Shown: positions 19,017-59,144, numbered from the stretch's first letter. The stretch is DNA of 64,000 bases from Escherichia coli (GCF_030013595.1 NZ_CP122768.1), one strand, 5' to 3'. Numbers and translations are program-made. Notes: generated by a model from the letters alone, not told the origin.

Positions 19017-19352
19017 ATGGATAAAGAACGCATCATTCAGGAATTTGTGCCCGGTAAACAGGTCACACTGGCGCATCTCATCGCGCATCCCGGCGAGGAA
19101 CTGGCGAAGAAAATCGGCGTTCCTGATGCGGGCGCAATCGGCATTATGACGCTAACTCCCGGCGAAACGGCGATGATCGCCGGTGATTTAGCACTAAAAG
19201 CCGCCGATGTGCATATCGGTTTTCTCGACCGTTTTAGCGGCGCGTTGGTGATTTATGGCTCGGTGGGTGCAGTAGAAGAAGCGTTATCACAAACCGTCAG
19301 CGGTTTAGGGCGTTTATTAAATTATACGCTTTGTGAAATGACCAAAAGTTAA
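19017..19352 (+). CDS. eutS: Bacterial microcompartment shell protein EutS
   Basis: 111 aa from [15 protein letters not shown]...; first gene of the eut operon. Confidence 0.85.
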
Positions 19353-19364
19353 TACGAGGCATTC

Positions 19365-19844
19365 ATGAAACGAATTGCGTTTGTGGGTACCGTCGGGGCA
19401 GGAAAAACAACGTTATTTAATGCGTTGCAGGGAGATTATACCCTCGCCAGAAAAACGCAGGCCGTAGAATTTAATGATAAGGGTGATATTGATACGCCGG
19501 GTGAATATTTTAGCCATCCCCGCTGGTATCACGCCTTAATTACCACGCTACAGGATGTGGACATGCTGATCTATGTCCACGGCGCGAATGACCCGGAAAG
19601 TCGGTTGCCTGCCGGGTTGCTGGATATTGGCGTCAGCAAACGGCAAATCGCCGTCATCAGTAAAACGGACATGCCAGATGCTGACGTCGCCGCAACGCGA
19701 AAGTTATTGCTTGAGACGGGCTTCGAAGAGCCGATTTTCGAGCTAAACAGCTACGACCCGCAAAGCGTGCAGCAACTGGTGGATTATCTGGCATCTCTCA
19801 CCAAACAGGAGGAAGCAGGTGAAAAAACTCATCACAGCGAATGA
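19365..19844 (+). CDS. eutP: Ethanolamine utilisation GTPase/kinase-like protein EutP
   Basis: 159 aa, P-loop GTVGAGKTTLF. Confidence 0.85.
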   Translation: MKRIAFVGTVGAGKTTLFNALQGDYTLARKTQAVEFNDKGDIDTPGEYFSHPRWYHALITTLQDVDMLIYVHGANDPESRLPAGLLDIGVSKRQIAVISKTDMPDADVAATRKLLLETGFEEPIFELNSYDPQSVQQLVDYLASLTKQEEAGEKTHHSE

Positions 19845-20520
19845 TATTCGTGAAGCACACGCGCGCGGCGAACAGGCAATGTCCGTGGTTCTGCGCGCCA
19901 GCATTATTACCCCGGAAGCCCGTGAAGTGGCAGATCTACTGGGTTTTACCATCACTGAATGTGATGAATCGACCCCGGTAACGGCGTCCGTTCCCGCCTG
20001 CGTGCCAGCCGATAAAACCGAAAGCCAGCGTATCCGCGAAACCATCATCGCCCAGCTACCGGAAGGCCAGTTTACCGAAAGCCTGGTCGCGCAGCTGATG
20101 GAAAAAGTGATGAAGGAAAAACAGTCACTGGAGCAGGGTGCAATGCAGCCGAGTTTCAAATCGGTTACCGGCAAAGGCGGCATCAAAGTGATTGATGGCA
20201 GCAGCGTCAAGTTTGGTCGTTTTGACGGCGCACAGCCACACTGCGTCGGATTAACGGATCTGGTCACCGGAGACGACGGCAGCAGCATGGCCGCTGGTTT
20301 TATGCAGTGGGAGAACGCCTTCTTCCCGTGGACCCTGAACTATGACGAAATCGACATGGTACTGGAAGGGGAACTGCACGTTCGCCACGAAGGCGAAACC
20401 ATGATCGCCAAAGCAGGCGACGTGATGTTTATCCCGAAAGGCTCCAGCATCGAATTTGGTACGACATCCAGCGTGAAATTCCTGTATGTCGCCTGGCCGG
20501 CTAACTGGCAATCCCTATGA
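19819..20520 (+). CDS. eutQ: Cupin-domain protein EutQ
   Basis: 233 aa; overlaps eutP by 26 bp. Confidence 0.85.
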   Translation: MKKLITANDIREAHARGEQAMSVVLRASIITPEAREVADLLGFTITECDESTPVTASVPACVPADKTESQRIRETIIAQLPEGQFTESLVAQLMEKVMKEKQSLEQGAMQPSFKSVTGKGGIKVIDGSSVKFGRFDGAQPHCVGLTDLVTGDDGSSMAAGFMQWENAFFPWTLNYDEIDMVLEGELHVRHEGETMIAKAGDVMFIPKGSSIEFGTTSSVKFLYVAWPANWQSL

Positions 20521-21320
20521 AAGATTTCATCACCGAAGCATGGCTAAGAGCGAACCATACGCTCAGCGAAGGCGCAGAGATCCATCTCCCTGCGGACAGT
20601 CGCCTGACGCCCTCTGCCCGGGAGCTACTGGAAAGCCGCCATCTGCGCATCAAGTTTATTGACGAGCAGGGCCGCCTGTTTGTTGACGATGAACAGCAGC
20701 AGCCGCAGCCCGTTCACGGGCTGACCAGTAGCGATGAACATCCGCAGGCGTGCTGCGAACTGTGCCGCCAGCCGGTGGCAAAAAAGCCGGACACTCTGAC
20801 TCACCTGTCGGCGGAAAAAATGGTCGCCAAAAGCGATCCGCGCCTCGGTTTTCGCGCGGTTCTCGACAGCACCATTGCGCTGGCAGTGTGGCTGCAAATT
20901 GAACTGGCAGAACCGTGGCAGCCGTGGCTGGCGGACATCCGCTCGCGTCTTGGCAATATTATGCGTGCCGATGCGCTGGGGGAACCGCTGGCCTGCCAGG
21001 CGATTGTCGGGCTTTCTGACGAAGATCTGCATCGGCTTTCTCACCAGCCGCTGCGCTATCTTGGTCACGATCATCTGGTGCCGGAAGCCAGCCACGGGCG
21101 CGATGCGGCGTTACTCAATCTGCTACGCACCAAAGTGCGGGAAACCGAAACCGTAGCGGCGCAGGTATTTATCACCCGCAGCTTTGAAGTATTACGCCCG
21201 GACATCTTGCAGGCGCTGAACCGCCTTTCCAGCACGGTCTACGTGATGATGATCCTGAGCGTAGCGAAACAACCGCTAACGGTGAAGCAGATCCAACAAC
21301 GACTGGGGGAAACGCAATGA
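20517..21320 (+). CDS. eutT: Cob(I)alamin adenosyltransferase EutT
   Basis: 267 aa; ATGA start/stop overlap with eutQ; operon position. Confidence 0.85.
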
Positions 21321-22333
21321 TTATTGAACGTTGTCGTGAACTGGCGTTGCGAGCGCCCGCCAGAGTGGTTTTTCCGGATGCGTTAGATCAACGTGTGCTG
21401 AAAGCCGCGCAATATTTACATCAACAAGGTCTGGCAACGCCCATTCTGGTCGCCAGCCCGTTTGAACTTCGTCAGTTTGCGCTCAGTCATGGCGTGGCGA
21501 TGGACGGGGTTCAGGTTATTGATCCACAGAGCAATCTTGCTATGCGGGAAGCGTTTGCGCAGCGTTGGTTGGCCCGTGCGGGCGAAAAAACGCCGCCGGA
21601 TGCGCTGGAAAAACTCACCGATCCGCTGATGTTCGCTGCCGCAATGGTCAGCGCCGGGATAGCGGATGTCTGTATCGCGGGCAATCTCTCTTCCACGGCG
21701 AATGTGCTGCGTGCCGGATTACGCATTATTGGCTTACAGCCAGGCTGTAAAACGCTCTCCTCCATTTTCCTGATGCTGCCACAGTACAGTGGCCCCGCAT
21801 TGGGCTTTGCCGATTGCAGCGTAGTGCCACAGCCGACGGCGGCGCAACTGGCGGATATCGCGCTTGCCAGCGCCGAAACCTGGCGCGCCATCACCGGAGA
21901 AGAACCGCGCGTGGCGATGTTGTCGTTTTCCAGTAACGGCAGCGCCCGTCACCCCTGCGTTGCCAACGTCCAGCAGGCGACAGAAATCGTCCGTGAGCGC
22001 GCGCCGCAGTTGGTAGTCGATGGCGAGTTGCAGTTTGACGCCGCCTTCGTGCCGGAAGTGGCGGCGCAAAAAGCGCCTGCCAGCCCGCTACAAGGCAAGG
22101 CCAATGTGATGGTTTTTCCGTCGCTGGAAGCCGGAAATATTGGCTACAAAATCGCACAACGACTCGGCGGATATCGTGCCGTCGGGCCATTGATACAAGG
22201 GCTTGCCGCGCCGATGCACGATCTCTCTCGTGGTTGTAGCGTGCAGGAAATTATCGAGCTGGCGCTGGTGGCAGCTGTGCCGCGTCAGACAGAAGTGAAC
22301 CGCGAAAGCAGTTTACAAACACTGGTTGAATGA
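21317..22333 (+). CDS. eutD: Phosphotransacetylase EutD (EutI)
   Basis: 338 aa, PTA-family motifs. Confidence 0.88.
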
Positions 22334-22371
22334 ACGGTCCCGTTCTGGACCCTGATAAAGAGGAAAGCACA

Positions 22372-22665
22372 ATGGAAGCATTAGGAATGATCGAAACCCG
22401 GGGCCTGGTTGCACTGATTGAGGCTTCTGACGCGATGGTGAAAGCTGCGCGCGTCAAGCTGGTTGGTGTTAAGCAGATTGGCGGCGGCCTGTGTACTGCC
22501 ATGGTTCGTGGTGATGTTGCAGCCTGTAAAGCCGCGACCGACGCAGGTGCTGCAGCGGCACAGCGTATCGGCGAGCTGGTATCTGTACACGTTATCCCGC
22601 GTCCGCACGGCGACCTGGAAGAAGTCTTCCCGATCGGCCTGAAAGGCGATAGCAGCAACCTGTAA
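22372..22665 (+). CDS. eutM: Major BMC-H shell protein EutM
   Basis: 97 aa from [28 protein letters not shown]...; ORF track extends 14 codons upstream to 22330. Confidence 0.9.
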
Positions 22666-22771
22666 TCACCCTGTGTGACGTCGATTCGGGCGTCACGCTC
22701 TCTCCTTTTTCAGTTTACCTTCCGCGGAGGGTAGGGGGAGCTTTTACCTGAAATACGCCACGGAGGCGGGT

Positions 22772-23059
22772 ATGAAACTGGCAGTCGTCACTGGACAAAT
22801 TGTTTGTACCGTACGCCATCACGGACTGGCGCATGACAAATTGCTGATGGTGGAAATGATTGATCCACAAGGTAATCCTGACGGGCAATGCGCCGTCGCC
22901 ATCGACAATATTGGCGCGGGAACCGGGGAGTGGGTGTTACTGGTGAGTGGCAGTTCCGCCCGCCAGGCGCATAAAAGCGAAACGTCACCGGTCGATCTGT
23001 GCGTGATTGGCATCGTCGATGAGGTGGTGTCTGGCGGTCAGGTAATTTTCCACAAATAA
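22772..23059 (+). CDS. eutN: BMC vertex (pentamer) protein EutN
   Basis: 95 aa, MKLAVVTGQIVCTVRHHGL.... Confidence 0.88.
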   Translation: MKLAVVTGQIVCTVRHHGLAHDKLLMVEMIDPQGNPDGQCAVAIDNIGAGTGEWVLLVSGSSARQAHKSETSPVDLCVIGIVDEVVSGGQVIFHK

Positions 23060-23070
23060 GGCAGAACATC

Positions 23071-24474
23071 ATGAATCAACAGGATATTGAACAGGTGGTG
23101 AAAGCGGTACTGCTGAAAATGCAAAGCAGTGACACGCCGCCCGCCGCCCTTCATGAGATGGGTGTTTTCGCGTCCCTGGATGACGCCGTTGCGGCAGCCA
23201 AAGTCGCCCAGCAAGGGTTAAAAAGCGTGGCAATGCGCCAGTTAGCCATTGCTGCCATTCGTGAGGCAGGCGAAAAACACGCCAGAGATTTAGCGGAACT
23301 TGCCGTCAGTGAAACCGGCATGGGGCGCGTCGAAGATAAATTTGCCAAAAACGTCGCTCAGGCGCGCGGCACACCAGGCGTTGAGTGCCTCTCTCCGCAA
23401 GTGCTGACGGGCGACAACGGCCTGACTTTAATTGAAAACGCGCCCTGGGGCGTGGTGGCTTCGGTGACGCCTTCCACTAACCCGGCGGCAACCGTAATTA
23501 ACAACGCCATCAGCCTGATTGCCGCGGGCAACAGCGTCATTTTTGCCCCGCATCCGGCGGCGAAAAAAGTCTCCCAGCGGGCGATTACGCTGCTCAACCA
23601 GGCGATTGTTGCCGCAGGCGGGCCGGAAAACTTACTGGTTACTGTGGTCAATCCGGATATCGAAACCGCGCAACGTTTGTTCAAGTTTCCGGGTATCGGC
23701 CTTTTGGTGGTGACCGGCGGCGAAGCGGTAGTGGAAGCGGCGCGTAAACACACCAATAAACGTCTGATTGCCGCGGGCGCTGGCAACCCACCGGTAGTGG
23801 TGGATGAAACCGCCGACCTCGCCCGTGCCGCTCAGTCCATCGTCAAAGGCGCTTCTTTCGATAACAACATCATTTGTGCCGACGAAAAGGTACTGATTGT
23901 TGTTGATAGCGTAGCCGATGAACTGATGCGTCTGATGGAAGGCCAGCACGCGGTGAAACTGACCGCAGAGCAGGCGCAGCAGCTGGAACCGGTGTTGCTG
24001 AAAAATATCGACGAGCGCGGAAAAGGCACCGTCAGCCGTGACTGGGTTGGTCGCGATGCGGCGAAAATCGCGGCGGCAATCGGCCTTAAAGTTCCGGAAC
24101 AAACGCGACTGCTGTTTGTAGAAACCACCGCAGAACATCCGTTTGCCGTGACCGAACTGATGATGCCGGTGCTGCCCGTCGTGCGTGTCGCCAACGTGGC
24201 GGATGCCATTGCGCTGGCGGTGAAACTGGAAGGCGGTTGCCACCACACGGCGGCAATGCACTCGCGCAACATCGAGAACATGAACCAGATGGCGAACGCC
24301 ATTGATACCAGCATCTTCGTTAAGAACGGACCGTGCATTGCCGGGCTGGGGCTGGGCGGGGAAGGCTGGACCACCATGACCATCACCACGCCAACCGGTG
24401 AAGGGGTAACCAGCGCGCGTACGTTTGTCCGTCTGCGTCGCTGTGTATTAGTCGATGCGTTTCGCATTGTTTAA
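23071..24474 (+). CDS. eutE: CoA-acylating acetaldehyde dehydrogenase EutE
   Basis: 467 aa aldehyde-dehydrogenase family. Confidence 0.9.
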   Translation: MNQQDIEQVVKAVLLKMQSSDTPPAALHEMGVFASLDDAVAAAKVAQQGLKSVAMRQLAIAAIREAGEKHARDLAELAVSETGMGRVEDKFAKNVAQARGTPGVECLSPQVLTGDNGLTLIENAPWGVVASVTPSTNPAATVINNAISLIAAGNSVIFAPHPAAKKVSQRAITLLNQAIVAAGGPENLLVTVVNPDIETAQRLFKFPGIGLLVVTGGEAVVEAARKHTNKRLIAAGAGNPPVVVDETADLARAAQSIVKGASFDNNIICADEKVLIVVDSVADELMRLMEGQHAVKLTAEQAQQLEPVLLKNIDERGKGTVSRDWVGRDAAKIAAAIGLKVPEQTRLLFVETTAEHPFAVTELMMPVLPVVRVANVADAIALAVKLEGGCHHTAAMHSRNIENMNQMANAIDTSIFVKNGPCIAGLGLGGEGWTTMTITTPTGEGVTSARTFVRLRRCVLVDAFRIV

Positions 24475-24484
24475 GGAGTAACAG

Positions 24485-24910
24485 ATGGCGCACGACGAAC
24501 AATGGCTCACCCCGCGTCTGCAAACGGCGGCAACGCTGTGTAACCAGACGCCTGCCGCAACGGAATCTCCGCTGTGGCTGGGGGGGGATCTGGGCACCTG
24601 CGATGTGGTGTCGATGGTTGTCGACCGCGACGGTCAGCCGGTGGCGGTATGCCTCGACTGGGCCGATGTGGTCCGCGACGGCATCGTCTGGGATTTCTTC
24701 GGTGCGGTCACCATTGTTCGTCGCCATCTCGACACCCTCGAGCAGCAATTCGGTCGCCGTTTTAGCCATGCGGCGACCTCATTTCCTCCAGGTACGGACC
24801 CGCGTATTTCCATCAACGTGCTGGAATCTGCCGGGCTGGAAGTGAGCCATGTGCTGGATGAGCCAACCGCAGTCGCGGATCTGCTGCAACTGGACAACGC
24901 AGGCGTAGTG
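24485..24910 (+). pseudogene. eutJ: eutJ 5' fragment (codons 1-142), interrupted by IS10
   Basis: The reading frame runs straight into the IS10 outside end at 24911; 24485..24910 plus 26249..26659 gives 278 codons with a continuous ...NAGVV|DIGGGTTGIAIV... junction. Confidence 0.85.
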
Positions 24911-24956
24911 CTGATGAATCCCCTAATGATTTTGGTAAAAATCATTAAGTTAAGGT

Positions 24957-25025
24957 GGATACACATCTTGTCATATGATCAAATGGTTTCGCGAAAAATC
25001 AATAATCAGACAACAAGATGTGCGA
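24957..25025 (-). ncRNA. Predicted IS10 antisense RNA-OUT (pOUT transcript), placed by position within IS10
   Basis: Coordinates inferred from the known IS10 layout (transposase start at IS nt 108, matching the ATG at 25018); not independently verified. Confidence 0.4.
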
Positions 25026-26226
25026 ACTCGATATTTTACACGACTCTCTTTACCAATTCTGCCCCGAATTACACTTAAAACGACTCAACAGCTTAACGTT
25101 GGCTTGCCACGCATTACTTGACTGTAAAACTCTCACTCTTACCGAACTTGGCCGTAACCTGCCAACCAAAGCGAGAACAAAACATAACATCAAACGAATC
25201 GACCGATTGTTAGGTAATCGTCACCTCCACAAAGAGCGACTCGCTGTATACCGTTGGCATGCTAGCTTTATCTGTTCGGGCAATACGATGCCCATTGTAC
25301 TTGTTGACTGGTCTGATATTCGTGAGCAAAAACGACTTATGGTATTGCGAGCTTCAGTCGCACTACACGGTCGTTCTGTTACTCTTTATGAGAAAGCGTT
25401 CCCGCTTTCAGAGCAATGTTCAAAGAAAGCTCATGACCAATTTCTAGCCGACCTTGCGAGCATTCTACCGAGTAACACCACACCGCTCATTGTCAGTGAT
25501 GCTGGCTTTAAAGTGCCATGGTATAAATCCGTTGAGAAGCTGGGTTGGTACTGGTTAAGTCGAGTAAGAGGAAAAGTACAATATGCAGACCTAGGAGCGG
25601 AAAACTGGAAACCTATCAGCAACTTACATGATATGTCATCTAGTCACTCAAAGACTTTAGGCTATAAGAGGCTGACTAAAAGCAATCCAATCTCATGCCA
25701 AATTCTATTGTATAAATCTCGCTCTAAAGGCCGAAAAAATCAGCGCTCGACACGGACTCATTGTCACCACCCGTCACCTAAAATCTACTCAGCGTCGGCA
25801 AAGGAGCCATGGGTTCTAGCAACTAACTTACCTGTTGAAATTCGAACACCCAAACAACTTGTTAATATCTATTCGAAGCGAATGCAGATTGAAGAAACCT
25901 TCCGAGACTTGAAAAGTCCTGCCTACGGACTAGGCCTACGCCATAGCCGAACGAGCAGCTCAGAGCGTTTTGATATCATGCTGCTAATCGCCCTGATGCT
26001 TCAACTAACATGTTGGCTTGCGGGCGTTCATGCTCAGAAACAAGGTTGGGACAAGCACTTCCAGGCTAACACAGTCAGAAATCGAAACGTACTCTCAACA
26101 GTTCGCTTAGGCATGGAAGTTTTGCGGCATTCTGGCTACACAATAACAAGGGAAGACTTACTCGTGGCTGCAACCCTACTAGCTCAAAATTTATTCACAC
26201 ATGGTTACGCTTTGGGGAAATTATGA
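25018..26226 (+). CDS. IS10 transposase
   Basis: 402 aa, MCELDILHDSLYQFCPELHLKRLNSL...HGYALGKL; identical at protein level to the copy at 31470..32678. Confidence 0.93.
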   Translation: MCELDILHDSLYQFCPELHLKRLNSLTLACHALLDCKTLTLTELGRNLPTKARTKHNIKRIDRLLGNRHLHKERLAVYRWHASFICSGNTMPIVLVDWSDIREQKRLMVLRASVALHGRSVTLYEKAFPLSEQCSKKAHDQFLADLASILPSNTTPLIVSDAGFKVPWYKSVEKLGWYWLSRVRGKVQYADLGAENWKPISNLHDMSSSHSKTLGYKRLTKSNPISCQILLYKSRSKGRKNQRSTRTHCHHPSPKIYSASAKEPWVLATNLPVEIRTPKQLVNIYSKRMQIEETFRDLKSPAYGLGLRHSRTSSSERFDIMLLIALMLQLTCWLAGVHAQKQGWDKHFQANTVRNRNVLSTVRLGMEVLRHSGYTITREDLLVAATLLAQNLFTHGYALGKL

Positions 26227-26239
26227 GGGGATCTCTCAG

Positions 26240-26659
26240 GGCGTAGTGGATATCGGCGGCGGCACTACCGGCATTGCCATCGTGAAAAAGGGCAAGGTGA
26301 CGTACTCGGCGGATGAAGCCACTGGCGGACATCACATCTCTCTGACTCTCGCCGGAAATCGCCGTATTTCGCTGGAAGAGGCGGAGCAGTACAAGCGCGG
26401 TCACGGTGAAGAGATTTGGCCTGCGGTGAAACCGGTGTACGAAAAAATGGCGGACATTGTCGCCCGGCATATTGAAGGGCAGGGCATTACTGATTTATGG
26501 CTGGCGGGCGGCTCCTGTATGCAACCGGGCGTGGCGGAACTGTTTTGCAAACAATTCCCGGCGTTACAGGTGCATCTACCGCAGCACAGTTTGTTTATGA
26601 CCCCGCTGGCGATCGCCAGTAGCGGGCGAGAGAAAGCGGAGGGGATCTATGCAAAATGA
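26240..26659 (+). pseudogene. eutJ: eutJ 3' fragment (starts with the duplicated 9 bp)
   Basis: In frame with the 5' fragment after removing the IS and one TSD copy; Hsp70/actin-like ATPase motif DIGGGTT. Confidence 0.85.
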
Positions 26660-27836
26660 ATTGCAGACCGCGCTCTTTCAGGCGTTCGATACCCTGAATC
26701 TGCAACGGGTAAAAACATTTAGCGTTCCACCAGTGACGCTTTGCGGTCCGGGCGCGATGAGCAGTTGCGGGCAGCAAGCGCAAACGCGTGGGCTGAAACA
26801 TCTGTTCGTGATGGCAGACAGCTTTTTGCATCAGGCGGGGATGACCGCCGGGCTGACGCGTAGCCTGGCCGTTAAAGGTATCGCCATGACGCTCTGGCCA
26901 TGTCCGGTGGGCGAACCGTGCATCACCGACGTGTGTGCAGCCGTGGCGCAGTTGCGTGAATCGGGTTGCGATGGGGTGATCGCGTTTGGCGGCGGCTCGG
27001 TGCTGGATGCAGCAAAAGCCGTGGCGTTGCTGGTGACGAACCCGGATAGCACGCTGGCAGAGATGTCAGAAACCAGCGTTCTGCAACCGCGCCTGCCGTT
27101 GATTGCCATTCCAACTACCGCCGGAACCGGTTCTGAAACCACCAACGTAACGGTGATTATCGACGCGGTGAGCGGGCGCAAGCAGGTGTTAGCCCACGCC
27201 TCGCTGATGCCGGATGTGGCGATTCTCGACGCTACGCTGACCGAAGGCGTGCCGTCGCATGTCACGGCGATGACCGGTATCGACGCGTTAACCCATGCTA
27301 TTGAAGCGTACAGCGCGCTGAACGCTACACCGTTTACCGACAGCCTGGCGATTGGCGCAATCGCGATGATTGGTAAATCACTGCCGAAAGCGGTGGGCTA
27401 CGGTCATGACCTTGCCGCGCGCGAGAGCATGTTGCTGGCTTCATGCATGGCGGGAATGGCGTTTTCCAGTGCGGGGCTTGGGTTATGCCACGCGATGGCG
27501 CATCAGCCAGGGGCGGCGCTGCATATTCCGCACGGTCTGGCGAACGCTATGTTGCTGCCAACGGTGATGGAATTTAACCGGATGGTTTGTCGTGATCGGT
27601 TTAGCTTGGTTGGTCGGGCGCTGCGAACTAAAAAATCCGACGATCGTGACGCTATTAACGCGGTAAGTGAGCTGATTGCGGAAGTCGGGATTGGTAAACG
27701 ACTGGGCGATATTGGTGCGACATCTGCGCATTACGGCGCATGGGCGCAGGCCGCGCTGGAAGATATTTGTCTGCGCAGCAACCCGCGTACCGCCAGCCTG
27801 GAGCAGATTGTCGGCCTGTACGCAGCGGCGCAATAA
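26649..27836 (+). CDS. eutG: Iron-containing alcohol dehydrogenase EutG
   Basis: 395 aa, Fe-ADH family. Confidence 0.88.
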   Translation: MQNELQTALFQAFDTLNLQRVKTFSVPPVTLCGPGAMSSCGQQAQTRGLKHLFVMADSFLHQAGMTAGLTRSLAVKGIAMTLWPCPVGEPCITDVCAAVAQLRESGCDGVIAFGGGSVLDAAKAVALLVTNPDSTLAEMSETSVLQPRLPLIAIPTTAGTGSETTNVTVIIDAVSGRKQVLAHASLMPDVAILDATLTEGVPSHVTAMTGIDALTHAIEAYSALNATPFTDSLAIGAIAMIGKSLPKAVGYGHDLAARESMLLASCMAGMAFSSAGLGLCHAMAHQPGAALHIPHGLANAMLLPTVMEFNRMVCRDRFSLVGRALRTKKSDDRDAINAVSELIAEVGIGKRLGDIGATSAHYGAWAQAALEDICLRSNPRTASLEQIVGLYAAAQ

Positions 27837-27842
27837 AAGTGT

Positions 27843-27940
27843 ACGGACAGTCCCCTCGCCCCTTTGGGGAGAGGGTTAGGGTGAGGGGAACAGAGTCGCG
27901 CCGGTGCAAACAATTACCCTCACCCCGGCCCCTCGGCTTC
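27843..27940. repeat. GC-rich interspersed palindromic repeat (boxC-like), copy 2, with an extra inverted arm
   Basis: acggacagtcccctcgcccctttggggagagggttagggtgaggggaac, then ttaccctcaccccggcccctcggc, which is partly complementary to it. Confidence 0.55.
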
Positions 27941-28005
27941 CAGAGTGAGGGAAAAACCCACTTTCAGCATTGGCAATAAATAACAACTAACAGGGAGTAA
28001 AGGCG

Positions 28006-29232
28006 ATGGGAATTAACGAAATCATCATGTACATCATGATGTTCTTTATGCTGATAGCTGCCGTAGACAGGATCCTGTCGCAGTTCGGCGGTTCTGCTCG
28101 TTTCCTCGGTAAGTTCGGTAAAAGTATCGAAGGATCCGGCGGGCAGTTTGAAGAAGGCTTTATGGCGATGGGCGCACTGGGCCTGGCGATGGTTGGTATG
28201 ACCGCGCTGGCACCTGTTCTGGCCCACGTACTCGGACCGGTGATTATCCCGGTTTACGAAATGCTCGGTGCAAACCCGTCAATGTTCGCCGGAACACTGC
28301 TGGCGTGCGATATGGGCGGGTTCTTCCTCGCCAAAGAGCTGGCGGGCGGCGACGTAGCAGCGTGGCTATACTCTGGGTTAATTCTCGGGTCGATGATGGG
28401 GCCAACGATTGTGTTTTCCATTCCGGTGGCGCTCGGCATTATCGAACCTTCTGACCGTCGTTATCTGGCGCTCGGCGTGCTGGCGGGCATTGTGACCATT
28501 CCGATTGGCTGTATTGCTGGTGGTCTGGTTGCTATGTACTCCGGTGTGCAGATCAACGGTCAGCCGGTGGAATTCACCTTTGCGCTGATCCTGATGAACA
28601 TGATCCCGGTACTTATCGTTGCGGTGCTGGTGGCGCTGGGGCTGAAATTCATCCCGGAAAAAATGATCAACGGCTTCCAGATCTTCGCCAAATTCCTCGT
28701 TGCATTGATCACCCTCGGTCTTGCTGCCGCGGTAGTGAAATTCCTCCTTGGCTGGGAACTGATCCCGGGCCTTGATCCTATCTTTATGGCCCCTGGCGAC
28801 AAACCCGGTGAAGTGATGCGCGCCATTGAAGTTATCGGTTCTATCTCCTGCGTTCTGTTAGGGGCGTATCCGATGGTGCTGCTGCTGACCCGCTGGTTTG
28901 AAAAACCGCTGATGAGCGTCGGTAAAGTGCTGAATATGAACAACATCGCGGCAGCCGGCATGGTGGCAACGCTTGCCAACAACATCCCGATGTTCGGCAT
29001 GATGAAGCAGATGGATACCCGCGGCAAAGTCATCAACTGCGCCTTCGCCGTTTCCGCTGCTTTCGCCCTGGGCGACCACTTAGGCTTCGCCGCTGCCAAC
29101 ATGAACGCCATGATTTTCCCGATGATTGTCGGCAAATTGATCGGCGGCGTAACGGCGATTGGCGTGGCGATGATGCTGGTGCCAAAAGAAGACGCGACCG
29201 CGGCTAAAACCGAAGCGGAGGCACAATCGTGA
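28006..29232 (+). CDS. eutH: Ethanolamine permease EutH
   Basis: 408 aa polytopic membrane protein. Confidence 0.88.
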   Translation: MGINEIIMYIMMFFMLIAAVDRILSQFGGSARFLGKFGKSIEGSGGQFEEGFMAMGALGLAMVGMTALAPVLAHVLGPVIIPVYEMLGANPSMFAGTLLACDMGGFFLAKELAGGDVAAWLYSGLILGSMMGPTIVFSIPVALGIIEPSDRRYLALGVLAGIVTIPIGCIAGGLVAMYSGVQINGQPVEFTFALILMNMIPVLIVAVLVALGLKFIPEKMINGFQIFAKFLVALITLGLAAAVVKFLLGWELIPGLDPIFMAPGDKPGEVMRAIEVIGSISCVLLGAYPMVLLLTRWFEKPLMSVGKVLNMNNIAAAGMVATLANNIPMFGMMKQMDTRGKVINCAFAVSAAFALGDHLGFAAANMNAMIFPMIVGKLIGGVTAIGVAMMLVPKEDATAAKTEAEAQS

Positions 29233-30632
29233 ACACTCGCCAGCTACTGAGCGTCGGTATCGATATCGGCACCACCACCACCCAGGTGATTTTCTCCCAC
29301 CTGGAGCTGGTTAACCGTGCGGCGGTGTCGCAGGTGCCGCGCTACGAATTCATCAAACGCGAAATTAGCTGGCAAAGCCCGGTGTTCTTTACCCCTGTCG
29401 ATAAACAGGGTGGTTTAAAAGAAGCGGAACTGAAAACCTTAATCCTCGAGCAATATCAGGCTGCGGGCATTGCGCCGGAAAGCGTTGATTCTGGTGCCAT
29501 CATTATCACCGGTGAAAGCGCAAAAACCCGCAACGCTCGCCCGGCGGTGATGGCGCTCTCCCGGTCGCTGGGCGATTTTGTCGTCGCCAGCGCCGGGCCG
29601 CATCTTGAATCCGTGATCGCCGGACACGGTGCCGGGGCGCAAACCCTTTCTGAACAACGGCTGTGTCGGGTCCTGAATATCGATATCGGCGGTGGCACCG
29701 CGAACTACGCCCTGTTCGATGCCGGAAAAATCAGCGGCACTGCCTGCCTCAACGTCAGCGGTCGCCTGCTGGAAACCGACAGCCAGGGGCGCGTGGTTTA
29801 CGCTCATAAACCGGGGCAGATGATTGTGGATGAGTGCTTCGGTGCCGGTACTGACGCCCGTTCGCTGACTGGCGGGCAGCTGGTGCAGGTTACCCGCCGG
29901 ATGGCAGAGCTGATTGTCGAAGTGATTGACGGAACGCTCTCGCCGCTCGCGCAGGCATTGATGCAAACCGATTTGCTGCCCGCAGGTGTTACGCCCGAAA
30001 TCATTACGCTTTCTGGCGGGGTAGGCGAATGTTATCGCCACCAGCCCACCGACCCGTTCTGTTTTGCCGATATCGGCCCGCTTCTGGCAACGGCGCTGCA
30101 TGACCATCCGCGTCTGCGTGAGATGAACGTGCAGTTTCCGGCGCAAACCGTGCGCGCCACGGTGATTGGCGCGGGTGCTCATACCCTTTCGCTCTCTGGC
30201 AGCACAATCTGGCTGGAGGGCGTACAACTGCCGCTGCGCAATTTGCCAGTGGCGATCCCGATTGATGAAACGGATCTGGTCAGTGCCTGGCAACAGGCGC
30301 TGATTCAACTGGATCTTTGCCCCAAAACTGACGCGTACGTGCTGGCGCTTCCCGCCTCGCTGCCTGTGCGTTACGCCGCGGTACTGACGGTCATCAACGC
30401 GCTGGTCGATTTCGTCGCGCGTTTTCCGAATCCGCATCCCCTGCTGGTGGTGGCCGGGCAGGACTTTGGTAAAGCTCTGGGCATGTTGTTGCGCCCACAG
30501 CTACAACAACTCCCGTTGGCAGTCATTGACGAAGTGATTGTCCGCGCGGGGGACTATATCGACATTGGTACGCCTCTTTTTGGCGGATCGGTTGTGCCGG
30601 TGACGGTGAAATCACTCGCATTTCCTTCCTGA
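29229..30632 (+). CDS. eutA: Ethanolamine ammonia-lyase reactivase EutA
   Basis: 467 aa; ATGA-type 4-bp overlap with eutH. Confidence 0.88.
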   Translation: MNTRQLLSVGIDIGTTTTQVIFSHLELVNRAAVSQVPRYEFIKREISWQSPVFFTPVDKQGGLKEAELKTLILEQYQAAGIAPESVDSGAIIITGESAKTRNARPAVMALSRSLGDFVVASAGPHLESVIAGHGAGAQTLSEQRLCRVLNIDIGGGTANYALFDAGKISGTACLNVSGRLLETDSQGRVVYAHKPGQMIVDECFGAGTDARSLTGGQLVQVTRRMAELIVEVIDGTLSPLAQALMQTDLLPAGVTPEIITLSGGVGECYRHQPTDPFCFADIGPLLATALHDHPRLREMNVQFPAQTVRATVIGAGAHTLSLSGSTIWLEGVQLPLRNLPVAIPIDETDLVSAWQQALIQLDLCPKTDAYVLALPASLPVRYAAVLTVINALVDFVARFPNPHPLLVVAGQDFGKALGMLLRPQLQQLPLAVIDEVIVRAGDYIDIGTPLFGGSVVPVTVKSLAFPS

Positions 30633-30643
30633 GGGAACGACTT

Positions 30644-31456
30644 ATGAAACTAAAGACCACATTGTTCGGCAATGTATATCAGTTTAAGGATGTAAAAGAG
30701 GTGCTGGCTAAAGCCAACGAACTGCGTTCGGGGGATGTGCTGGCGGGCGTTGCTGCGGCAAGTTCACAGGAGCGCGTGGCGGCAAAGCAGGTGTTGTCGG
30801 AAATGACCGTAGCGGACATCCGCAATAATCCGGTGATTGCCTATGAAGATGACTGCGTGACGCGGCTGATTCAGGACGACGTTAACGAAACGGCCTATAA
30901 CCAGATTAAAAACTGGAGCATCAGCGAACTGCGTGAGTATGTGCTGAGCGATGAAATCAGCGTGGACGACATTGCCTTTACCCGCAAAGGGCTGACCTCG
31001 GAAGTGGTGGCGGCGGTAGCGAAGATTTGCTCCAACGCGGACCTGATCTACAGCGCGAAGAAAATGCCGGTGATCAAAAAGGCCAATACCACCATCGGTA
31101 TTCCGGGCACCTTTAGCGCCCGTTTGCAGCCGAACGATACCCGTGACGACGTGCAAAGTATCGCCGCGCAAATCTACGAAGGGCTTTCCTTCGGGGTGGG
31201 CGATGCGGTGATTGGCGTTAACCCGGTGACTGACGACGTGGAAAACTTAAGCCGCGTGTTGGATACCATTTATGGCGTGATCGACAAATTCAACATCCCA
31301 ACTCAGGGCTGCGTACTGGCGCACGTCACCACCCAGATCGAAGCGATCCGTCGTGGCGCACCAGGCGGGCTGATTTTCCAGAGTATCTGTGGCAGCGAAA
31401 AAGGGCTGAAAGAGTTTGGCGTAGAGCTGGCGATGCTCGATGAAGCACGCGCAGTG
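30644..31456 (+). pseudogene. eutB: eutB 5' fragment (ethanolamine ammonia-lyase large subunit), interrupted by IS10
   Basis: MKLKTTLFGNVYQFKDVKEVLAKANELRSGDV...; frame enters the IS10 inside end at 31457. 30644..31456 plus 32795..33343 gives 454 codons (453 aa). Confidence 0.88.
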
Positions 31457-31469
31457 CTGAGAGATCCCC

Positions 31470-32678
31470 TCATAATTTCCCCAAAGCGTAACCATGTGTG
31501 AATAAATTTTGAGCTAGTAGGGTTGCAGCCACGAGTAAGTCTTCCCTTGTTATTGTGTAGCCAGAATGCCGCAAAACTTCCATGCCTAAGCGAACTGTTG
31601 AGAGTACGTTTCGATTTCTGACTGTGTTAGCCTGGAAGTGCTTGTCCCAACCTTGTTTCTGAGCATGAACGCCCGCAAGCCAACATGTTAGTTGAAGCAT
31701 CAGGGCGATTAGCAGCATGATATCAAAACGCTCTGAGCTGCTCGTTCGGCTATGGCGTAGGCCTAGTCCGTAGGCAGGACTTTTCAAGTCTCGGAAGGTT
31801 TCTTCAATCTGCATTCGCTTCGAATAGATATTAACAAGTTGTTTGGGTGTTCGAATTTCAACAGGTAAGTTAGTTGCTAGAACCCATGGCTCCTTTGCCG
31901 ACGCTGAGTAGATTTTAGGTGACGGGTGGTGACAATGAGTCCGTGTCGAGCGCTGATTTTTTCGGCCTTTAGAGCGAGATTTATACAATAGAATTTGGCA
32001 TGAGATTGGATTGCTTTTAGTCAGCCTCTTATAGCCTAAAGTCTTTGAGTGACTAGATGACATATCATGTAAGTTGCTGATAGGTTTCCAGTTTTCCGCT
32101 CCTAGGTCTGCATATTGTACTTTTCCTCTTACTCGACTTAACCAGTACCAACCCAGCTTCTCAACGGATTTATACCATGGCACTTTAAAGCCAGCATCAC
32201 TGACAATGAGCGGTGTGGTGTTACTCGGTAGAATGCTCGCAAGGTCGGCTAGAAATTGGTCATGAGCTTTCTTTGAACATTGCTCTGAAAGCGGGAACGC
32301 TTTCTCATAAAGAGTAACAGAACGACCGTGTAGTGCGACTGAAGCTCGCAATACCATAAGTCGTTTTTGCTCACGAATATCAGACCAGTCAACAAGTACA
32401 ATGGGCATCGTATTGCCCGAACAGATAAAGCTAGCATGCCAACGGTATACAGCGAGTCGCTCTTTGTGGAGGTGACGATTACCTAACAATCGGTCGATTC
32501 GTTTGATGTTATGTTTTGTTCTCGCTTTGGTTGGCAGGTTACGGCCAAGTTCGGTAAGAGTGAGAGTTTTACAGTCAAGTAATGCGTGGCAAGCCAACGT
32601 TAAGCTGTTGAGTCGTTTTAAGTGTAATTCGGGGCAGAATTGGTAAAGAGAGTCGTGTAAAATATCGAGTTCGCACAT
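31470..32678 (-). CDS. IS10 transposase
   Basis: 402 aa, identical to the copy at 25018..26226. Confidence 0.93.
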   Translation of the reverse strand: MCELDILHDSLYQFCPELHLKRLNSLTLACHALLDCKTLTLTELGRNLPTKARTKHNIKRIDRLLGNRHLHKERLAVYRWHASFICSGNTMPIVLVDWSDIREQKRLMVLRASVALHGRSVTLYEKAFPLSEQCSKKAHDQFLADLASILPSNTTPLIVSDAGFKVPWYKSVEKLGWYWLSRVRGKVQYADLGAENWKPISNLHDMSSSHSKTLGYKRLTKSNPISCQILLYKSRSKGRKNQRSTRTHCHHPSPKIYSASAKEPWVLATNLPVEIRTPKQLVNIYSKRMQIEETFRDLKSPAYGLGLRHSRTSSSERFDIMLLIALMLQLTCWLAGVHAQKQGWDKHFQANTVRNRNVLSTVRLGMEVLRHSGYTITREDLLVAATLLAQNLFTHGYALGKL

Positions 32679-32739
32679 CTTGTTGTCTGATTATTGATTT
32701 TTCGCGAAACCATTTGATCATATGACAAGATGTGTATCC
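32671..32739 (+). ncRNA. Predicted IS10 antisense RNA-OUT of copy 2, placed by position
   Basis: Mirror of the copy-1 placement; pOUT points toward the outside end at 32785 and onward into eutB'-eutC. Confidence 0.4.
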
Positions 32740-32785
32740 ACCTTAACTTAATGATTTTTACCAAAATCATTAGGGGATTCATCAG

Positions 32786-33343
32786 CGCGCAGTGGGCGCG
32801 GAGTTCAACCGTATCGCCGGGGAAAACTGTCTCTACTTCGAAACCGGGCAAGGCTCGGCGCTGTCCGCTGGCGCGAACTTCGGCGCAGACCAGGTGACGA
32901 TGGAAGCGCGTAACTATGGGCTGGCGCGTCATTACGATCCGTTTATCGTCAACACCGTGGTCGGTTTTATTGGGCCGGAGTATCTCTACAACGACCGCCA
33001 GATTATCCGTGCGGGCTTAGAAGATCACTTTATGGGCAAGCTGAGCGGCATCTCGATGGGCTGTGACTGCTGCTACACCAACCACGCTGACGCTGATCAG
33101 AACCTCAACGAAAACCTGATGATCCTGCTCGCCATCGCAGGCTGTAACTACATCATGGGGATGCCGCTGGGCGATGACATCATGCTCAACTATCAGACCA
33201 CCGCATTCCACGACACTGCCACTGTGCGTCAGTTACTCAACCTGCGCCCGTCACCGGAGTTTGAACGCTGGCTGGAAAGCATGGGCATTATGGCAAACGG
33301 TCGCCTGACCAAACGGGCGGGCGATCCGTCACTGTTCTTCTGA
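32786..33343 (+). pseudogene. eutB: eutB 3' fragment (starts with the duplicated 9 bp)
   Basis: ...RAVGAEFNRIAGENCLYFETGQG... continues the EutB frame and ends at the TGA at 33341-33343. Confidence 0.88.
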
Positions 33344-33363
33344 TGACGCGGAGATAACACATC

Positions 33364-34251
33364 ATGGATCAAAAACAGATTGAAGAAATTGTACGCAGCG
33401 TGATGGCGTCAATGGGACAAGCGGCCCCCGCGCCGTCAGAAGCAAAGTGCGCCACCACCACCTGTGCGGCACCGGTGACCTCTGAAAGCTGTGCGCTGGA
33501 TTTAGGTTCTGCGGAAGCAAAAGCGTGGATTGGTGTTGAAAACCCGCATCGCGCAGACGTATTAACAGAACTGCGTCGCAGCACCGTGGCCCGCGTTTGT
33601 ACCGGTCGTGCCGGTCCGCGTCCGCGCACCCAGGCGTTGCTGCGTTTCCTGGCCGATCACTCTCGTTCGAAAGATACCGTTCTGAAAGAAGTACCGGAAG
33701 AGTGGGTGAAAGCGCAGGGCTTGCTGGAAGTCCGCTCCGAAATCAGCGACAAAAATCTCTACCTGACTCGTCCGGATATGGGCCGCCGCCTGTGTGCAGA
33801 AGCTGTTGAAGCGCTGAAAGCACAGTGTGTTGCTAATCCGGACGTGCAGGTCGTTATTTCTGATGGCCTGTCAACTGATGCGATCACCGTGAACTACGAA
33901 GAGATCCTGCCGCCGCTGATGGCGGGCCTGAAGCAAGCCGGGCTGAAAGTCGGTACGCCATTCTTTGTACGTTATGGTCGCGTGAAGATTGAAGATCAGA
34001 TCGGTGAGATCCTAGGCGCGAAAGTAGTGATCCTGCTGGTGGGCGAACGTCCGGGGTTGGGGCAGTCAGAAAGCCTCTCCTGCTACGCCGTTTACTCGCC
34101 GCGTATGGCGACCACCGTTGAGGCCGATCGCACCTGTATCTCTAACATTCACCAGGGCGGCACGCCGCCGGTTGAAGCCGCAGCCGTCATTGTGGATTTG
34201 GCGAAACGTATGCTGGAGCAGAAAGCATCCGGCATCAACATGACCCGATAA
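33364..34251 (+). CDS. eutC: Ethanolamine ammonia-lyase small subunit EutC
   Basis: 295 aa, operon position immediately after eutB. Confidence 0.88.
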
Positions 34252-34260
34252 GGAGGCATC

Positions 34261-34920
34261 ATGCCAGCTTTAGATTTGATTCGACCGTCGGTAACCGCCA
34301 TGCGGGTGATTGCCTCCGTTAACGCCGAATTTGCACGTGAACTGAAATTGCCGCCGCATATTCGTAGCCTCGGGCTGATTTCTGCTGATTCAGATGACGT
34401 CACCTACATTGCGGCTGACGAAGCGACCAAGCAGGCGATGGTCGAAGTGGTATATGGTCGCTCGCTGTATGCGGGCGCTGCACACGGCCCGTCACCGACT
34501 GCCGGTGAGGTGCTGATTATGCTTGGTGGACCAAACCCGGCGGAAGTGCGTGCTGGTCTGGATGCGATGGTTGCGAATATTGAAAATGGCGCTGCTTTCC
34601 AGTGGGCAAATGACGCAGAAAACACAGCCTTCCTGGCACATGTAGTTTCGCGTACCGGTTCTTATCTCTCATCAACCGCCGGGATCACGCTTGGCGATCC
34701 GATGGCGTATCTGGTGGCACCGCCGCTGGAAGCGACCTACGGCATTGATGCAGCGTTGAAATCTGCCGACGTGCAGTTGGTGACCTATGTCCCGCCACCG
34801 TCTGAAACCAACTACTCGGCAGCATTTTTAACCGGTAGCCAGGCCGCGTGTAAAGCAGCCTGTAACGCCTTTACCGATGCAGTGCTGGAAATCGCGCGTA
34901 ATCCAATCCAGCGTGCGTAA
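34261..34920 (+). CDS. eutL: BMC-T (tandem-domain) shell protein EutL
   Basis: 219 aa. Confidence 0.88.
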
Positions 34921-34926
34921 CGGAGG

Positions 34927-35433
34927 TTGCCGATGATCAATGCACTGGGATTGCTGGAAGTGGACGGCATGGTCGCCGCGATAGATGCAGCTGATGCCAT
35001 GCTCAAAGCAGCTAACGTTCGTCTGCTCAGTCACGAAGTGCTTGACCCTGGTCGCCTAACGCTGGTGGTGGAAGGCGATCTGGCGGCGTGTCGTGCGGCG
35101 CTGGACGCAGGTTGTGCTGCCGCGATGCGTACCGGGCGTGTCATCAGCCGTAAGGAGATCGGTCGGCCAGACGATGACACCCAGTGGCTGGTTACTGGCT
35201 TTAACCGCCAGCCGAAGCAACCCGTAAAGGAACCCGACGCGCCAGTTATCGTCGCGGAATCTGCTGACGAGTTGTTGGCGCTGTTAACATCAGTACGTCA
35301 GGGAATGACGGCAGGAGAAGTGGCTGCCCACTTTGGCTGGCCGCTGGAAAAAGCCAGAAATGCGCTCGAACAGCTCTTTTCTGCCGGGACGTTACGTAAA
35401 CGCAGTAGTCGTTACCGTCTCAAGCCCCATTAA
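34927..35433 (+). CDS. eutK: BMC shell protein EutK (BMC domain plus C-terminal nucleic-acid-binding-like tail)
   Basis: 168 aa, MINALGLLEVDGMVAAIDAADAMLKAANV.... Confidence 0.85.
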   Translation: MPMINALGLLEVDGMVAAIDAADAMLKAANVRLLSHEVLDPGRLTLVVEGDLAACRAALDAGCAAAMRTGRVISRKEIGRPDDDTQWLVTGFNRQPKQPVKEPDAPVIVAESADELLALLTSVRQGMTAGEVAAHFGWPLEKARNALEQLFSAGTLRKRSSRYRLKPH

Positions 35434-35478
35434 CCTGTCGGAGGTGCCGGGTGTCCTACAACACCCGGCATTAACATC

Positions 35479-36531
35479 ATGAAAAAGACCCGTACAGCCA
35501 ATTTGCACCATCTTTATCATGAACCCTTACCCGAAAACCTGAAGCTCACGCCGAAGGTCGAAGTGGATAATGTTCATCAACGACAGACAACGGACGTCTA
35601 TGAACATGCTTTGACAATTACCGCCTGGCAGCAGATTTACGATCAGCTGCATCCGGGCAAGTTTCATGGTGAATTTACGGAAATTCTACTCGATGATATT
35701 CAGGTTTTTCGTGAATACACTGGTCTGGCGCTGCGTCAGTCGTGCCTGGTCTGGCCGAACTCGTTCTGGTTTGGCATTCCGGCGACGCGCGGTGAGCTGG
35801 GATTTATCGGTTCGCAATGTCTGGGAAGCGCAGAAATTGCGACGCGCCCGGGTGGAACTGAGTTTGAATTAAGTACGCCGGACGATTACACGATCCTTGG
35901 CGTAGTGCTTTCTGAAGATGTCATCACTCGTCAGGCTAACTTTTTGCATAATCCGGATCGGGTATTACATATGCTGCGTAGCCAGTCGGCGCTGGAAGTG
36001 AAAGAGCAGCATAAAGCCGCGCTGTGGGGCTTTGTCCAACAGGCGCTGGCGACGTTTTGCGAGAACCCGGAAAATCTCCATCAGCCTGCAGTGCGAAAAG
36101 TGCTGGGGGATAATTTGCTAATGGCGATGGGGGCGATGCTGGAAGAAGCGCAGCCGATGATGACGGCGGAAAGCATCAGTCATCAGAGTTACCGTCGATT
36201 GCTTTCCCGCGCCCGTGAATATGTGCTGGAAAACATGTCCGAACCGGTGACGGTGCTGGACTTGTGTAATCAACTGCATGTCAGCCGCCGCACGCTACAA
36301 AACGCGTTTCACGCCATTTTGGGCATTGGTCCGAACGCGTGGCTGAAACGTATTCGCCTGAACGCCGTGCGCCGCGAACTCATAAGTCCGTGGTCACAAA
36401 GCACAACGGTAAAAGACGCCGCCATGCAGTGGGGATTCTGGCATCTTGGGCAATTTGCCACGGATTATCAGCAACTGTTTGCCGAGAAGCCGTCACTGAC
36501 GCTGCATCAGCGGATGCGAGAGTGGGGGTGA
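35479..36531 (+). CDS. eutR: AraC-family transcriptional activator of the eut operon
   Basis: 350 aa; C-terminal AraC helix-turn-helix ([36 protein letters not shown]). Confidence 0.88.
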
Positions 36532-57928: not shown

Positions 57929-58157
57929 AATCAGGATGAGCTCCTTTTGACCAATCCCAGGAAAATTCTGCGTATTTTACCGGGTAATTGCGCAATGGAC
58001 AGTTAGGATATGTTCGAAAAAACAGCAAAAAGCACGATTTCATCTATCTTTGTGCTGTGAAAGTTAATAGTGCACTTGCACTTGAGGTAATCGGCAAATA
58101 CTCTTAGTGAGTAAATGTTTGCCGTGGTGGCAAGGTGTTAGAACAACAGAGAATATA

Positions 58158-59144
58158 ATGATGCAGGATTTGCGTCTGATATTAATCATTGTTGGCGCGA
58201 TCGCCATAATCGCTTTACTGGTACATGGTTTCTGGACCAGCCGTAAAGAACGATCTTCTATGTTCCGCGATCGGCCATTAAAACGAATGAAGTCAAAACG
58301 TGACGACGATTCTTATGACGAGGATGTCGAAGATGATGAGGGCGTTGGTGAGGTTCGTGTTCACCGCGTGAATCATGCCCCGGCTAACGCCCAGGAGCAT
58401 GAGGCTGCTCGTCCGTCGCCGCAACACCAGTACCAACCGCCTTATGCGTCTGCGCAGCCGCGTCAACCGGTCCAGCAGCCGCCTGAAGCGCAGGTATCGC
58501 CGCAACATGCTCCGCGTCCAGCGCAGCCGGTGCAGCAGCCTGCCTATCAGCCGCAGCCTGAACAGCCGTTGCAGCAGCCAGTTTCGCCACAAGTCGCGTC
58601 AGCGCCGCAGCCAGTGCATTCAGCACCGCAACAGGCACAACAGGCTTTCCAGCCTGCAGAACCCGTAGCGGCACCACAGCCTGAGCCTGTAGCGGAACCG
58701 GCTCCAGTTATGGATAAACCGAAGCGCAAAGAAGCGGTGATTATCATGAACGTCGCGGCGCATCACGGTAGCGAGCTAAACGGTGAACTGCTTCTTAACA
58801 GCATTCAACAAGCGGGCTTCATTTTTGGCGATATGAATATTTACCATCGTCATCTTAGCCCGGATGGCAGCGGCCCGGCGTTATTTAGCCTGGCGAATAT
58901 GGTGAAACCGGGAACCTTTGATCCTGAAATGAAGGATTTCACTACTCCGGGTGTCACTATCTTTATGCAGGTACCTTCTTACGGTGACGAGCTGCAGAAC
59001 TTCAAGCTGATGCTGCAATCTGCGCAGCATATTGCCGATGAAGTGGGTGGTGTAGTGCTTGACGATCAGCGCCGTATGATGACTCCGCAGAAATTGCGCG
59101 AGTACCAGGACATCATCCGCGAAGTCAAAGACGCCAACGCCTGA
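58158..59144 (+). CDS. zipA: Cell-division protein ZipA (TM anchor, P/Q-rich linker, FtsZ-binding domain)
   Basis: 328 aa from [26 protein letters not shown]...; ORF track extends 17 codons upstream to 58107. Confidence 0.9.

Follow-up and report, generated by a model that had tools for sequence, protein, structure and literature searches.

Two IS10 insertions interrupt eutB and eutJ in the ethanolamine operon of an Escherichia coli lineage

Introduction

The transposon Tn10 carries two inverted copies of IS10, with outside ends facing outwards and inside ends facing a central segment of imported cargo, the tet genes. IS10-Right, a member of the IS4 family, is 1329 bp long (PMC11148124). Insertion of IS10 produces a 9-bp duplication of the target, the consensus for which is NGCTNAGCN, relaxed to NPuCNNNGPyN (PMC4574204). 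Transcripts from the outward promoter of the element (Pout) can run on into adjacent genes, with a level about 10% that of the reference promoter lacUV5 (PMC9330008), and both PMC9330008 and PMC4574204 cite the activation of neighbours by this route, for example of acrEF in Salmonella.

The eut operon encodes the use of ethanolamine, which is recognised as a trait that helps E. coli of the gut and the urinary tract to compete (PMC5821096, PMC6652756). The pathway centres on the enzyme EutBC (PMC5821096). The operon has an inducible promoter, P1, and a weak constitutive promoter, P2, before eutR, the product of which also controls virulence genes in EHEC (PMC5821096). A mobile element has been described in eut near eutB in E. 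coli K-12 MG1655, in which the CPZ-55 prophage lies between eutA and eutB (PMC11148124).

The DNA analysed here (the window) is a stretch of 64,000 nucleotides of E. coli (GCF_030013595.1, NZ_CP122768.1) that contains the eut operon and two copies of IS10, one in eutB and one in eutJ. We assign a probability of about 0.93 to the reading that these are two independent, simple cut-and-paste insertions into the eut operon on the chromosome of an E. coli lineage other than K-12, vertically inherited and with the consequences inferred below.

Results

The eutB reading frame begins at 30644 on the plus strand, and its codon 271 ends at 31456, immediately before a 1329-bp element (31457..32785, minus strand; copy B) with its inside end at 31457 and its outside end at 32785. 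The left terminus is the IS10 inside end, CTGAGAGATCCCCTCAT... (in longer form CTGAGAGATCCCCTCATAATTTCCCC...), and the right terminus is the outside end, ...ATTAGGGGATTCATCAG (in longer form, on the reverse strand, ...AAAATCATTAGGGGATTCATCAG). Read inwards, the outside end (CTGATGAATCCCCTAAT...) and the inside end (CTGAGAGATCCCCTCAT...) match each other at 17 of the first 23 positions. The element is flanked by the direct repeat CGCGCAGTG, at 31448..31456 (eutB codons 269-271, R-A-V) and at 32786..32794. These are the only two copies of the 9-mer on this strand of the 64-kb window, and the chance of a 9/9 match at one fixed position is ~4e-6.

The 5' fragment of eutB (30644..31501, plus strand) comprises 271 EutB codons followed by 14 IS-encoded codons (LRDPLIISPKRNHV) and an IS-encoded stop at 31499-31501, giving a predicted product of 285 amino acids. 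The 3' fragment (32795..33343, plus strand) holds codons 272-453 and the stop codon, and an open reading frame starting from a GTG at 32792 would encode 183 amino acids. Removal of IS10 and one repeat restores an open frame of 1362 nucleotides encoding 453 amino acids, 450 of which are identical to those of the crystallised E. coli enzyme (PDB 3ABO chain A). The reconstructed protein scored 662 bits against the NCBIfam model NF011649 (cut-off 554) and aligned as a single stretch over residues 4-452; neither EutB fragment is therefore a complete enzyme. The disruption of eutB is thus confirmed as a simple IS10 insertion with a 9-bp target duplication after codon 271. A sequence-only reading of the window had already proposed that IS10 splits eutB at 31448-32794, with a 9-bp direct repeat and a frame of 271 codons whose remainder resumes past the outside end; when checked by script, its coordinates and counts were all correct, as were the PCR product sizes that it predicted (about 1.45 kb with the insertion and about 0.11 kb for an uninterrupted allele).

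The transposase gene of copy B (31470..32678, minus strand) is intact and encodes 402 amino acids; its product scored 404 bits against NF033591, the NCBIfam model of IS4-family transposases (cut-off 152). The antisense RNA-OUT of copy B (32671..32740, plus strand) matched Rfam RF00240 over its full length (positions 1-70) at 98.8 bits, the gathering score being 41, and points outward, in the same direction as 'eutB-eutC-eutL-eutK-eutR. RNA-OUT is full length in both IS10 copies of the window. Over its 1329 bp, copy B is 100% identical to the IS10 found beside tetD in many Tn10-bearing plasmids. The tetD side of the Tn10 map is, we take it, the position of IS10-Right. Both window copies share with IS10-Right their length, their ends, the 402-amino-acid transposase, RNA-OUT and the 9-bp duplication, and the element is IS10 of the IS10-Right type; in the element itself there is no difference from IS10-Right, and what is new is where it has inserted, in eutB and in eutJ. 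Both targets, CGCGCAGTG in eutB and GGCGTAGTG in eutJ, fit the relaxed consensus NPuCNNNGPyN at every position and the strict NGCTNAGCN at four of its six specified positions. The NCBI PGAP label for the IS10 transposase is 'IS4-like element ISVsa5 family transposase'. In the Tn10-bearing plasmids, the tetD-side IS10 copy is itself split by IS1.

The copy in eutJ was located by searching for the end sequences of the element. This second element (copy A; 24911..26239, plus strand, 1329 bp) does not differ from copy B at any base (100% identity) and is inverted relative to it, the outside end being at 24911 and the inside end at 26239. It is flanked by its own 9-bp duplication, GGCGTAGTG, at 24902..24910 (eutJ codons 140-142) and at 26240..26248. 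The transposase gene (25018..26226, plus strand, 402 amino acids) is intact, and RNA-OUT (24956..25025, minus strand; RF00240, 98.8 bits) is again directed outward, here antisense to eutJ' and eutE. The element divides eutJ into a 5' fragment of 142 codons (24485..24910, plus strand), the frame of which continues into IS10 as far as 25078, and a 3' fragment with codons 143-278 (26249..26659, plus strand). The reconstructed 278-amino-acid EutJ gave a full match to NF011660 at 397 bits. An exact look-up of the 197-amino-acid EutJ'-IS10 fusion product found no record.

The operon as a whole, eutS-P-Q-T-D-M-N-E-J-G-H-A-B-C-L-K-R, occupies 19017..36531 on the plus strand, and its order of 17 genes between maeB and hemF is collinear with that in annotated relatives. 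Apart from eutJ and eutB, which are interrupted, the remaining 15 genes are complete reading frames. The sequence-only reading took the microcompartment operon to be otherwise intact, which was not borne out, as copy A splits eutJ after codon 142; both eutB and eutJ, and not one gene alone, should be annotated as IS-disrupted pseudogenes. The CPZ-55 prophage is absent here, eutA (30632) and eutB (30644) adjoining each other; the K-12 prophage is intergenic, whereas the insertion sequences in the window lie inside coding sequence.

The closest complete genomes are those of two isolates from pig faeces, HCP5S3_I2 and LCP30S3_I5. The former was aligned with the window and is about 99.9% or more identical to it. 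In HCP5S3_I2, eutB and eutJ are annotated as uninterrupted, CGCGCAGTG and GGCGTAGTG are each present in one copy at the respective site, and at both sites the overlap between the alignment blocks is the 9-mer and nothing more. This overlap identifies true empty sites in the relative and true target duplications in the window.

Two identical 1.3-kb repeats within 8 kb are a classic source of misassembly, and it might be supposed that an IS10 repeat was misplaced into eutB, or that a minority of the cells in a mixed population carry it. A perfect 9-bp duplication of a sequence that the relative has only once at this site is not, however, something that a misplaced repeat would create. Moreover, independent draft assemblies at NCBI contain both the left and the right eutB junctions, base for base as in the window (100% identity). 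By exact look-up, the 285-amino-acid EutB'-IS product was found in assemblies GCA_021649405.1, GCA_036246605.1 and GCA_008326365.1 and is recorded on four contigs; the 183-amino-acid C-terminal fragment of EutB was found on 12 contigs. The presence of the junctions in independent drafts indicates a vertically inherited allele and not an assembly artefact, and we regard an artefact or a mixed population as very improbable.

The eutB junction was present in 0 of 5,426 complete RefSeq E. coli genomes and in 0 of 72,556 plasmids, and insertions at both sites (eutB and eutJ) are absent from these complete genomes and plasmids. The allele is therefore confined to a small lineage. The ECZU assemblies, which hold EutB and EutJ fragments of 194 and 167 amino acids, respectively, were considered as a parallel double disruption and rejected, as nearly all of their eut genes are fragmented and there is no IS. 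Broken eut genes of the kind seen in the ECZU loci are typical of frameshift-rich assemblies.

The draft assemblies also bear on the order of the two insertions. In GCA_021649405.1, a contig that is 100% identical to the window (L003) has the left junction of eutB::IS10 and an empty eutJ site, with a single copy of GGCGTAGTG; the right eutB junction is present in the same assembly on another contig (L009). Contigs of 5.4-5.5 kb in GCA_036246605.1 and GCA_008326365.1 have IS10 inside ends on both sides, which means that they carry both insertions. The combination of eutB::IS10 with an empty eutJ site in GCA_021649405.1 implies that the eutB insertion came first and the eutJ insertion later, in a sub-lineage. 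Under this order, IS10 would have entered eutB at CGCGCAGTG, dividing the ethanolamine ammonia-lyase large subunit after its residue 271, and would later have entered eutJ at GGCGTAGTG in the sub-lineage. It is formally possible instead that GCA_021649405.1 lost its eutJ copy by precise excision, a rare event, and that there was no later gain in the others. The gain of a second identical copy in the sub-lineage, together with the intact transposase and ends, suggests indirectly that the element may be able to transpose.

The two copies enclose a unit of 7875 bp (24911..32785) with a Tn10-like composite geometry, in which an inverted IS10 pair with its outside ends outward surrounds 5217 bp of eutJ'-eutG-eutH-eutA-eutB'. 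Tn10 has the same arrangement, an inverted IS10 pair with the inside ends turned towards the central segment. The left IS10 copy of Tn10 has diverged, whereas both copies in the window are identical and intact. Tn10 also differs in what it encloses, which is imported cargo there and the native chromosomal eutJ'-G-H-A-B' here. The exact agreement in the orientation of the ends would suit a 7.9-kb unit that had arrived as a block, with the DNA between the IS10 copies imported by transposition, but the other features of the locus contradict such an origin. The inner 5217 bp are collinear with the native eutJ-G-H-A-B of HCP5S3_I2, at 99.96% identity. A separate 9-bp duplication flanks each IS, and none flanks the whole unit, the outer flanks of which differ (GGCGTAGTG versus CGCGCAGTG). 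A related strain (GCA_021649405.1, contig L003) also carries only one of the two insertions. The empty eutJ site of that strain and the collinearity of the inner segment refute arrival as a block, the probability of which we consider negligible; the unit was made in place by two separate insertions. No transposed copies of the composite unit were found in the complete E. coli genomes or plasmids searched. The unit is therefore described by its geometry, as resembling a composite transposon; in principle, the inverted IS10 pair might mobilise or flip the enclosed 5.2 kb.

Discussion

The eutB insertion is expected to abolish the use of ethanolamine. A protein severed at residue 271 within one domain of 453 residues would not be active. 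Glu287 and the later active-site residues (3ABO structure) presumably lie in the detached C-terminal part of EutB; the literature searched offered no support for the EutB active-site residue numbers. We know of no second ethanolamine ammonia-lyase locus in E. coli. Cells that lack a functional EutBC would neither deaminate ethanolamine nor be able to use it as a source of nitrogen or carbon, and an ethanolamine-negative phenotype is a sound inference as judged from 64 kb of genome.

Transcription of the operon is likely to be altered as well. Copy A lies upstream of eutG-eutH-eutA-eutB and is expected to be polar on those genes. As transcription from P1 would be interrupted twice, eutG, eutH, eutA and eutB' would be poorly expressed, and both eutG-H-A-B' and eutC-L-K should lose most of their P1-driven expression. 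The eutC-L-K-R genes would then depend on the weak P2 before eutR and on any read-out from the IS10 outside end (pOUT). As the RNA-OUT of copy B points into 'eutB-eutC-L-K-R, and Pout transcripts are able to reach neighbouring genes (PMC9330008), read-through from the pOUT of copy B may give these genes, eutR included, a degree of constitutive expression. The direction of outward transcription was set by the Rfam match to RNA-OUT and by identity to IS10R; a simple scan for the sigma-70 consensus flagged no promoter at the outside end. The arrangement resembles that in acrEF-type cases, in that the outside end likewise faces downstream genes of the same orientation. In those cases, however, activation was measured and selected, whereas for the eutB copy activation is only what the geometry would allow, and the sequence met first downstream belongs to a gene fragment.

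A relaxation of selection once the operon was inactivated was considered by polarising all differences from HCP5S3_I2 with two outgroups. The derived SNPs of the window lineage comprise five non-synonymous and one synonymous in eut (14.8 kb), with G137S and T385I in eutB among them, and three non-synonymous, two synonymous and one intergenic outside eut (33 kb). The excess of SNPs in eut falls short of significance (binomial test, p = 0.13), and the pattern in eut is compatible with neutral decay after inactivation, albeit in a way that is suggestive only. In eutE of HCP5S3_I2 there is a nonsense codon, Q177*, that is derived in that genome and is called in LCP30S3_I5 as well; it could be a second, independent loss of eut or a sequencing error.

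These data have some bearing on an adaptive reading, in which the loss of ethanolamine catabolism, or the rewiring of eutR by pOUT, was selected in the lineage. Such selection might be suggested by the occurrence of two insertions in one operon, but a pair of insertions within 6.5 kb would be nothing unusual in a genome with many IS10 copies, and some E. coli carry dozens. The preponderance of non-synonymous changes among the derived SNPs inside eut (5/6) could be taken in the same sense, yet simple neutral decay following the first insertion would account for a ratio of 5:1, and the SNP excess carries the p-value given above. The stop codon in eutE of the sister genome would add an independent loss if it is not a sequencing error. 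Persistence of the allele in a lineage that has been sampled several times and the direction of the copy B RNA-OUT, into eutC-L-K-R, are also in keeping with adaptation. On balance, we think it unlikely that the insertions were adaptive.

A more far-reaching proposal is that the double insertion made a competent Tn10-type transposon carrying eutG-eutH-eutA and, at the same time, turned the locus from catabolism to pure sensing. If this were true, the unit could be caught carrying chromosomal metabolic genes onto plasmids. P2, and perhaps pOUT, would continue to supply EutR, which would be freed from competition with EutBC for adenosylcobalamin, and ethanolamine would no longer be consumed. We hold this proposal to be unlikely.

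The reading of two independent, vertically inherited IS10 insertions makes eutB::IS10 and eutJ::IS10 new alleles of a well-known kind, and no new mechanism is revealed by them. The locus is a clean, dated example of the stepwise accumulation of IS10 that gives rise to a Tn10-like structure from native chromosomal DNA. It also predicts an ethanolamine-negative lineage of E. coli, in which the allele would be of use for marking the lineage and as a naturally occurring knock-out.

A second IS10 insertion in the eut operon

The eut operon of the window carries a second IS10, which splits eutJ after codon 142 (24902-26248) and is identical to the copy in eutB (31457-32785). The eutJ element is flanked by its own 9-bp duplication, GGCGTAGTG, separate from that of the eutB copy. 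The sequence-only reading had described the rest of the eut operon as intact and made no mention of this element; the interruption of eutJ contradicts that description.

The targets of the two independent insertions (24902-24910 and 31448-31456) were compared, and seven of the nine positions were common to both: GCGNAGTG. The only differences between them fall at the two 'N' positions of the published IS10 target consensus (PMC4574204). Of the four copies of the shared octamer that the forward strand of the eut operon contains, IS10 occupies two. The operon also contains perfect GCTNAGC sites (three in all), each of which is free of IS10. The agreement between the two targets may reflect a preference finer than the consensus, or may have arisen by chance.

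The right junction of the eutB insertion is also found in a contig of the draft assembly GCA_021649405.1 (L009), where the IS10 shows a single-base difference relative to the window copy at approximately position 76 (window 32680). This base lies 2 nt before the transposase start codon (ATG), within the RNA-IN/RNA-OUT pairing region, and could be either a real variant or the consensus of a repeat collapsed in the draft assembly.

Other features of the window and its relatives

The zipA gene (58107-59144) encodes 345 aa in the window, versus 305 aa in HCP5S3_I2, the closest complete genome (locus L001); in two other genomes its product is 332 aa long. Within zipA the window has approximately 50 additional bases (58461-58513) that interrupt its alignment with L001, suggesting a length polymorphism. 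HCP5S3_I2 carries an IS200/IS605-family element (tnpA; L001 24104-24809) between yfeY and yfeX, and the equivalent interval of the window (~40100) is without it. An IS3-family element, annotated as IS1397-like in relatives, is located at ~380-1800; both open reading frames of this element (438-968 and 1073-1795) are matched by NF033516, a model of IS3 transposases, with 299 bits for the latter.

eut genes in other E. coli genomes

In three public ECZU E. coli assemblies (BNGL, BNFN and BNEZ; L006-L008), the gene calls break most of the eut genes into several short pieces, with no insertion sequence present there. Such fragmentation is typical of uncorrected indel errors, and 'truncated' Eut database proteins derived from the ECZU assemblies should therefore not be read as pseudogenes. 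In HCP5S3_I2, eutE (L001 9748-11151) is annotated as a pseudogene and contains a derived nonsense codon, Q177*; at the equivalent position in the window (23599) the ancestral codon is intact. The nonsense codon is either a sequencing error or an independent loss of eut function in the sister lineage.
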